Source of the DNA: Escherichia coli
GTDB lineage: Bacteria; Pseudomonadota; Gammaproteobacteria; Enterobacterales; Enterobacteriaceae
Reading direction: 5' to 3' (one strand)
Length of the DNA: 678 bases
NCBI RefSeq assembly: GCF_003334335.1
Contig: NZ_QOWQ01000160.1
Shown in pieces: positions 1 through 199 of this stretch (its first letter is position 1; each line of letters starts with the position of its first letter). The notes below the pieces were generated by a model. The model saw nothing but the letters and a program-made list of their open reading frames with translations. It was not told the DNA's origin and searched no databases. The position numbers were made by a program, and so were the translations under genes.

Positions 1-43
1 TACTCCGTGACTGCTCTGCCACCCTTTTTAAAGTGAATTTTGT

Positions 44-70
44 GATGCGGTGAATGCGGCTATGCGCACG
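44..70. repeat. Three imperfect tandem ~9-bp repeats with an ATGCGG core
   Basis: GATGCGGTG (44-52), AATGCGGCT (53-61), ATGCGCACG (62-70). The first copy lies within the inner end of the left inverted-repeat arm. Confidence 0.4.
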
Positions 71-84
71 CGGAACAGTTAAAA

Positions 85-105
85 CCGTAAAGTGGTCTTT
101 TACGG
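85..105. other. Short hairpin-capable inverted repeat (CCGTAAA, 7-nt loop, TTTACGG); on the - strand it is followed by TTTT
   Basis: 85-91 CCGTAAA pairs with 99-105 TTTACGG. Reverse complement of 76-84 is TTTTAACTG, giving a weak intrinsic-terminator-like shape on the - strand only. Confidence 0.25.
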
Positions 106-135
106 GGCGTAACGGGCATCCTTCTGTATTCCGGC

Positions 136-157
136 GTTAATTGTTAACTGGTTAACG
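136..157. promoter_or_regulatory. Tandem GTTAAC palindromes / three GTTAA repeats (GTTAATT-GTTAACTG-GTTAACG); candidate operator for an unknown regulator
   Basis: GTTAA at 136-140, 143-147 and 151-155 with 7-8 bp period. Two full GTTAAC palindromes (143-148, 151-156) are separated by TG. Located about 55-75 nt upstream of ATG 212. Confidence 0.3.
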
Positions 158-199
158 TCACCTGGAGGCACCAGGCACCGCATCACAAAATTCATTGTT

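Follow-up and report, generated by a model that had tools for sequence, protein, structure and literature searches.

Genomic context of the inverted repeat

What does a long perfect inverted repeat do when it is placed directly in front of two small genes? An earlier note on this DNA had offered three non-exclusive readings, an invertible switch, a small mobile insertion, or an RNA helix that closes a structured 5' leader and gates ribosome access, and we followed these up computationally. The 678-nt stretch of E. coli DNA that was analyzed (the window) contains two arms, 34-52 (TGAATTTTGTGATGCGGTG) and 176-194 (CACCGCATCACAAAATTCA), which are exact reverse complements over 19 bp with 123 nt between them. 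As the note had described, the repeat can be extended to 32-52 / 176-196 with one mismatch, by the A32-T196 pair and a G33/T195 mismatch that becomes G·U as RNA. When the window was shuffled 1000 times with dinucleotides preserved, the longest perfect repeat of this kind measured 7-13 bp and 19 was never reached, in agreement with the view that such a repeat is unlikely to arise by chance. The right arm ends at 194, 5 nt before the Shine-Dalgarno sequence (SD) GAGGA (200-204) of the first ORF, which has its ATG at 212.

The window proved to come from a Qin-like lambdoid prophage in E. coli, where it covers the dicF-dicB spacer and adjoining genes of the dicBF (early-left) operon. The repeat is placed in this spacer by an Rfam match to the 3' half of the DicF sRNA, including its terminator stem, at 1-24 on the + strand (RF00039 model positions 29-52, the 5' side being cut off by the window edge), together with the annotation of dicB. 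At the equivalent place in a homologous locus (L004) the full DicF scored 76.7 bits. Several E. coli chromosomes are 100% identical to the window, and there the two ORFs, which the note had seen as a small cassette, are annotated as dicB and a DUF1482 protein. The first, at 212-400 on the + strand, was present in the ORF list and encodes the cell-division inhibitor DicB of 62 aa (RefSeq WP_000449172.1; phrog_1251, E = 2e-40), and the second, at 397-585 on the + strand and likewise supported by the ORF list and annotation, encodes a DUF1482 / ydfD-like small protein of 62 aa with a GTG start (phrog_1092, E = 1e-32). The two ORFs overlap in GTGA (397-400), and the K-12 gene in the place of the second carries the annotation lysis protein YdfD. 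A lambdoid prophage adjoining yccA makes up the surrounding 10.7 kb, with the order repressor region, DUF1391 (ydfA-like) gene, window, exonuclease, DUF4224 gene and integrase.

No sigma-70-like promoter was found on either strand of the whole window, which bears out the note's statement that the segment holds no convincing one and is consistent with co-transcription of both arms. A 1,608-nt ydfABC-dicFB-ydfD transcript has been detected by Northern blot, and the operon is described as having no internal promoter (PMC10448788). Since this transcript spans the operon and a promoter was not found inside it, both arms should be on one RNA and not be separated by a transcription start downstream of position 52, an outcome that the note had considered. 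Terminator-like matches on the minus strand (105-85, 575-596 and 625-638) are + strand hairpins read backwards; the hairpin at 85-105 (P3, see below), when read on the opposite strand, is then followed by TTTTAACTGT.

The arms pair as two strands of an RNA helix

When 25-215 was folded as RNA the minimum free energy (MFE) was -71.7 kcal/mol (z = -4.9), and the MFE structure consisted of an outer helix of 28 pairs, 25-52 with 176-204 and one bulge, that surrounds several hairpins. We refer to the helix formed by the arms as P1, its left arm at 34-52 and its right arm at 176-194 on the + strand. Its length is 19 perfect bp, 21 bp when the G·U is counted and 28 bp with one bulge. In the MFE fold the helix is extended outside P1 by 25-33, the U-tract of the DicF terminator plus AAAG on the + strand, which pairs with 195-204 (32-33 with 195-196, and 25-31 with 198-204).

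Homologues were collected from phage records, E. coli genomes, viral contigs with TCACCNGGAGGCACCNGGC and species-representative genomes, and 44 distinct homologues of the window's subtype were aligned for analysis of covariation. Over this alignment the 19 pairs of P1 were 94.7% paired and 10 of the 19 were changed on both sides, while the helix extension was 93.2% paired in its 2-pair part and 73.7% paired in its 7-pair part. The pairing and covariation of the whole structure were reached by none of 500 shuffles, and sliding the 3' partners as a control lowered pairing to 36-42%. The Klebsiella copies have a perfect 20-bp helix of wholly different sequence (ACAGACCTTGCAATGCAGTG / CACTGCATTGCAAGGTCTGT), and in Citrobacter and the locus L036 A-U pairs of the helix are exchanged for G-C, and U-A pairs for C-G. 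The K-12 spacer is 86% identical to that of the window and has its helix at L011 1510-1528 / 1639-1657; the DNA arms there are only 89% complementary, but as RNA the two mismatches are U·G or G·U pairs, and the predicted fold retains the helix.

The minus strand also folds well (z = -4.6), as a perfect repeat is symmetric. In P1 the strand bias (G·U 33 vs A·C 18) is weaker than in the inner hairpin P4, and counted as independent events the G·U and A·C variants of P1 are about equal, so that P1 favours the + strand by frequencies only. The + strand is fixed by the inner hairpins, where G·U outnumbers A·C by 48 to 1, and a minus-strand RNA was ruled out by this ratio in P4 and by the strand of the Rfam match described below. 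The arms are the two strands of a + strand RNA helix, P1.

P1 encloses a pseudoknotted RNA with STnc100/PasD architecture

Inside P1 the + strand folds into a series of hairpins. The first, P2 (56-71, GCGGC...GC.CGC), was seen in the MFE structure and has the conserved loop motif CUAUGCG, with columns that are near-invariant within the subfamily. It is followed in the MFE structure by P3 (85-105), a variable hairpin that differs in length and sequence among homologues. P4 (133-159) is supported by covariation, with its stem at 133-140/152-159 and a conserved loop, UUGUUAACUGG, at 141-151; it was 99.7% paired and five of its eight pairs were changed on both sides. P5 (161-175, CCUGG-AGGCA-CCAGG) is likewise supported by covariation and is the most conserved motif of the superfamily. 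Its stem (161-165 / 171-175) was 100% paired with one of five pairs changed on both sides (U-A to G-C), and its pattern, TCACCNGGAGGCACCNGGC, occurs in at least 120 viral loci.

The segment just 3' of P2, CAGUUAA (76-82), forms a pseudoknot with the P4 loop; it provides the 5' strand, and UUAACUG (145-151) in the loop is the complementary and covarying 3' strand. Among the matches listed (L014-L133) the two strands co-vary over 24 distinct loop types of the STnc100/PasD superfamily, with examples such as CCAGUC/GACUGG, AUCAGCA/UGCUGAU, ACUGGC/GCCAGU and UAUCAGUAC/GUACUGAUA. Complementarity of each segment to its own loop was on average 6.67 bp in the matches listed, as compared to 5.02 ± 0.21 bp with the loops permuted, and 0 of 5000 permutations gave as high a value. 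Of 5426 complete E. coli genomes, 4642 (about 85%) carry the pseudoknotted RNA. A 2026 preprint on STnc100/PasD predicts a consensus structure with RNAalifold, and the passages of the STnc100/PasD literature at hand make no mention of the junction-loop pseudoknot.

The relationship to this family was visible at Rfam level, where STnc100 (RF02076) matched 22-244 on the + strand over the full length of the model with 36.8 bits (E = 2.3e-6), which is below the gathering score of 47; relatives elsewhere scored 28-44 bits. STnc100 and DicF were the only Rfam families with a match at E <= 1 in the window. By cmscan the closing helix of the STnc100 consensus aligns onto both arms, and the window RNA has the STnc100 order of closing helix, 5' hairpin, middle hairpin and 3' hairpin CACCNGGAGGCACCNGG. 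It shares with STnc100 and PasD this architecture, GGUGAAU, the CUrUGCG loop, UCACCNGGAGGCACCNGGCACC, the closing helix and the junction-loop pseudoknot. The window RNA differs in that it scores below the threshold and is embedded in mRNA between DicF and dicB, bordered directly upstream by the DicF terminator and 5 nt downstream by the dicB SD, and, in contrast to a stand-alone gene, it lacks both its own promoter and its own terminator. Canonical STnc100, furthermore, has CCCC/GGGG in place of the P2 stem, with CUrUGCGG as the loop. Family membership holds at the level of architecture. The literature passages available to us describe STnc100 and PasD only as prophage sRNAs without an established role, PasD being Hfq-associated, and place both as Hfq-associated sRNAs in the late region, near Q and stx2.

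For the enclosed RNA we also considered known small ribozymes, a retron msr/msd, a tRNA-like element and an HK022 put-type antiterminator RNA, and set them aside, as no reverse transcriptase, matching motif or Rfam support was found. In several viral contigs, L046 (43-61 and 527-545), L063, L068 and L071, canonical STnc100-type copies form same-strand tandem pairs with a spacing of exactly 484 nt.

The repeat does not behave as a DNA switch or a mobile element

A perfect inverted repeat that flanks a short segment directly upstream of genes has the layout of an invertible DNA segment (inverton), which would here switch dicB expression. However, when 5426 complete E. coli genomes were searched with 53-175 inverted, no place covering at least 80% of the query was found, and thus no inverted allele at the places matched in 4634 genomes. 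Within 53-175 there is no promoter-like site on either strand, and the 10.7 kb around the window holds no dedicated invertase; its only recombinase is the prophage tyrosine integrase, which lies with the DUF4224 gene at the yccA end, that is the attachment end. An inverton is also at odds with the K-12 arms, which are imperfect as DNA yet pair as RNA, and with an interior that is a conserved strand-specific RNA structure. Lacking an inverted allele, an internal promoter and a dedicated invertase, this reading was rejected and its probability is in our opinion next to nil.

The second reading, a MITE-like mobile insertion with terminal inverted repeats, would agree with the finding that a genome holds 1-9 copies of the element and that different phage families carry it. 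The copies are, however, at syntenic prophage positions, and the flanks (...TTTTTAAAG and TTGTTGAGG...) are without direct repeat, i.e. there is no target-site duplication. A 54-nt query for the empty-site junction gave only 28-nt half matches and none with at least 80% coverage in the 5426 genomes, a test that is effectively limited to the 213 genomes with the window's DicF allele. Furthermore, the terminal arms differ by context in both sequence and length and yet covary, and two partial copies (L012 and L013) are broken inside the element and not at its ends. A MITE was therefore also rejected, on the absence of an empty site and a target duplication and on arms that vary between contexts while staying complementary, and we regard it as highly improbable.

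The two partial copies are natural left-arm deletion alleles. At L012 (1501-1582) only P4, P5 and the right arm are found before dicB, the deletion having taken DicF and the left arm, and at L013 (1501-1549) only P5 and the right arm are found, before a Rha-family gene.

Of the readings in the earlier note the two that act on DNA thus fell away, and what stood of the third was the RNA helix closing a structured 5' leader, which is backed by covariation, the G·U bias and the STnc100 helix. The inverted repeat is real and functional, and it is so as RNA and not as a DNA switch.

Length of the closing stem and its probable processing by RNase III

RNase III requires about two turns of regular duplex, its cuts leave a 2-nt 3' overhang, and a perfect duplex of ~20 bp in an E. 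coli RNA is expected to be cut. P1 offers such a duplex, ~20 bp or more and mostly regular. Among the matches listed, the closing stems of canonical STnc100-type copies have 1-10 uninterrupted bp (median 8) and at most 12 with one interruption, and a promoter-like site ends just before P1; one canonical copy (L019) also has a terminator ~30 nt after the closing stem. In copies embedded in early-left operons the closing stem is about 19-22 bp, with a median of 22 bp when one interruption is allowed, the exceptions among them being the P1-like phages P7 and D6 with 9 bp.

Two 3' ends are reported for DicF in PMC5069750 and PMC9438474: Rho-independent termination gives a form of 53 nt, and RNase III processes the full dicBF RNA to one of 72 nt (the latter after Faubladier, Cam and Bouche 1990). 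Since the DicF model ends at position 24 of the window, the 19 nt by which the two forms differ (72-53) lead to ~43, the centre of the left arm, and from these two reported lengths we infer that the 72-nt DicF ends within this arm. As a check on this length arithmetic we used the second RNase III site that has been published, namely the 5' end of a 190-nt DicF precursor; in K-12 it falls at about L011 1311. Another, local inverted repeat (1246-1258 / 1304-1316) is found there upstream of dicF, and the position is within its right arm. The duplex around the 72-nt end and the RNA that it encloses are undescribed in the passages of PMC5069750 and PMC9438474 available to us, and an RNase III cleavage atlas (PMC6212723) names dicF in its main text as background only. 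The processing known from K-12 concerns the same locus and the same helix in an orthologous prophage, and by its length the reported product would end within the left arm; compared to the K-12 allele, the window has a helix without mismatches, its P3 is longer and its dicB has diverged. In all likelihood the role of the repeat for RNase III in the dicBF operon is already in the literature, and the fold is that of a catalogued family.

It could be argued that P1 is an architectural closing stem only, that its extra length is incidental and that RNase III has no role. A closing stem is indeed common to all members of the superfamily, and the P1-like phage copies, of the same subfamily, manage with 9 bp, which also means that RNase III processing cannot be universal for the subfamily. 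Against this stands the difference in stem length, as stand-alone copies reach at most 12 bp among the matches listed, whereas the embedded copies of two diverged lineages, E. coli and Klebsiella, have 19-22 bp built from unrelated sequences. A perfect duplex of this length is by established knowledge an expected target in E. coli, and a 72-nt RNase III product that ends 19 nt past DicF has been reported (PMC5069750 and PMC9438474). We therefore find it unlikely that P1 serves architecture alone.

Taken together, the results lead us to conclude with good, though not full, confidence that the arms are P1 of an STnc100/PasD-class RNA in the dicBF transcript and that this helix is the RNase III substrate that yields the 72-nt DicF. 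P1 would form in the polycistronic early-left (dicBF) transcript when RNA polymerase reads through the DicF terminator, and it would close the ~123-nt multi-hairpin pseudoknotted RNA of this class. The helix, 6-10 bp in stand-alone genes of the class, is lengthened here to 19 perfect bp, and at 19-28 bp it would become a substrate of RNase III, which is specific for double strands. A cut at mid-helix would give the 3' end of the 72-nt DicF at ~43, and a 2-nt stagger would place the new 5' end at ~185-187; the putative cut in the left arm is based on the inverted repeat, covariation and the DicF lengths, and its partner in the right arm on the inverted repeat, covariation and the geometry of the 2-nt overhang. 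The products would be DicF with the upstream genes, an inner RNA of ~140 nt, and a dicB-ydfD mRNA whose leader measures ~26 nt. The inner RNA, if released, may keep a 9-bp stem much like that of its stand-alone relatives. The cut would probably also loosen the ribosome-binding site of dicB, as the GAGGA of this gene is paired in the helix extension with the U-tract of the terminator. The model thus predicts that the cut lies within P1, that the inner RNA is released and that dicB translation is affected.

Only tentatively do we suggest that the inner RNA is itself an RNase III-excised, operon-embedded member of STnc100/PasD and a third product of the early-left operon beside the division inhibitors. 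If so, a compact RNA of ~140 nt, with 9-bp P1 ends that mimic those of stand-alone sRNAs, would work together with DicB, KilR, lambda-type Kil and TciA, whose genes it precedes in lambdoid and P1-like phages.

There are parallels to known RNase III sites. In rRNA precursors RNase III cuts the long-range stalk formed by the flanks and thereby excises the enclosed structured RNA. The window RNA resembles these stalks by the long-range pairing of flanks around a structured RNA; it differs in that the enclosed RNA is ~125-140 nt and that its release would have to be assumed. The RNase III site of the lambda N leader is likewise an early-left duplex by a ribosome-binding site, and cleavage there raises downstream translation, but it is a local hairpin without sequence similarity, whereas the window has a long-range helix around a conserved RNA.

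Ribosome access at dicB

The proximity of P1 to dicB raises the question whether its main function could be that of a translational gate, in which the long helix, with its extension, would keep ribosomes off dicB until it is opened, independently of RNase III. Between the right arm and the SD there are 5 nt, as the earlier note had pointed out, and in the MFE fold U25-A31 pairs with U198-A204, so that the extension at 195-204 on the + strand includes GAGGA. In line with this, the mean unpaired probability predicted for the SD (199-205) was 0.25-0.42 in unprocessed RNA with the helix, as compared to 0.60-0.69 in RNA that starts at 176 or 186 and is without it. The genes downstream of the helix moreover encode toxic products, according to PMC5069750. 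However, most pairs that the SD takes part in are weak ones, U·G or U-A, and conservation of this pairing is only 73.7%. The distance from the start of the right arm to the start codon is 36 nt here as compared to 44-55 nt in the Klebsiella and P1-like relatives, and the helix can therefore not cover the ribosome site in these. In addition, the dicB AUG is buried in a separate local hairpin anyway. We therefore give little credence to a gate as the main function, and prefer P1 as an RNase III substrate, with SD gating as a secondary and lineage-specific consequence that is weakly suggested by a predicted effect of modest size.

The local hairpin at the dicB start is a feature in its own right. 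The AUG (212-214) lies inside a 7-bp stem-loop at 208-225 (GAUAAUG-GAAA-CGUUAUU), and the predicted unpaired probability of the start codon was 0.01-0.13 both with and without the long helix. A 12-nt direct repeat, AAACGTTATTAC / AAACGTTAATAC (216-227 / 229-240), is part of this start-codon hairpin.

Distribution of the RNA subtype upstream of host-takeover genes

The subtype of the window RNA was found directly upstream of genes for DicB (phrog_1251) and KilR (phrog_294), and also upstream of those for a lambda-Kil-like protein (phrog_3924, a weak match), of the TerB-like TciA (phrog_632) in phages P7 and D6, and of small ORFs for tiny membrane peptides in Klebsiella. Loci in which it precedes such unrelated host-takeover genes are L002, L003, L005, L006, L009 and L137. 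The RNA subtype thus behaves as an independent module at its position in the operon.

The inverted repeat itself is accordingly neither a phase-variation switch nor a mobile element, and is probably the RNA duplex behind a processing event that has been known for more than 30 years. What we consider worth carrying forward is the enclosed covarying pseudoknot RNA, placed directly before several unrelated toxic host-takeover genes. It may offer a handle on the coupling between RNA processing and the expression of DicB- and Kil-type toxins, and on the role of the STnc100 class.

The E. coli-type prophage segment was also seen in records of non-enterobacterial hosts, with 80-87% identity or as exact motif matches. 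These records are H17 (MT713136 Aeromonas phage AP1, 249969-250142), L010 (Actinobacillus phage vB_Apl-pPE4), and L138, L141 and L142, which are MAGs labelled Collinsella, Lachnospiraceae and Ruminococcus. They look like cases of contamination, mis-binning or mis-assigned hosts.
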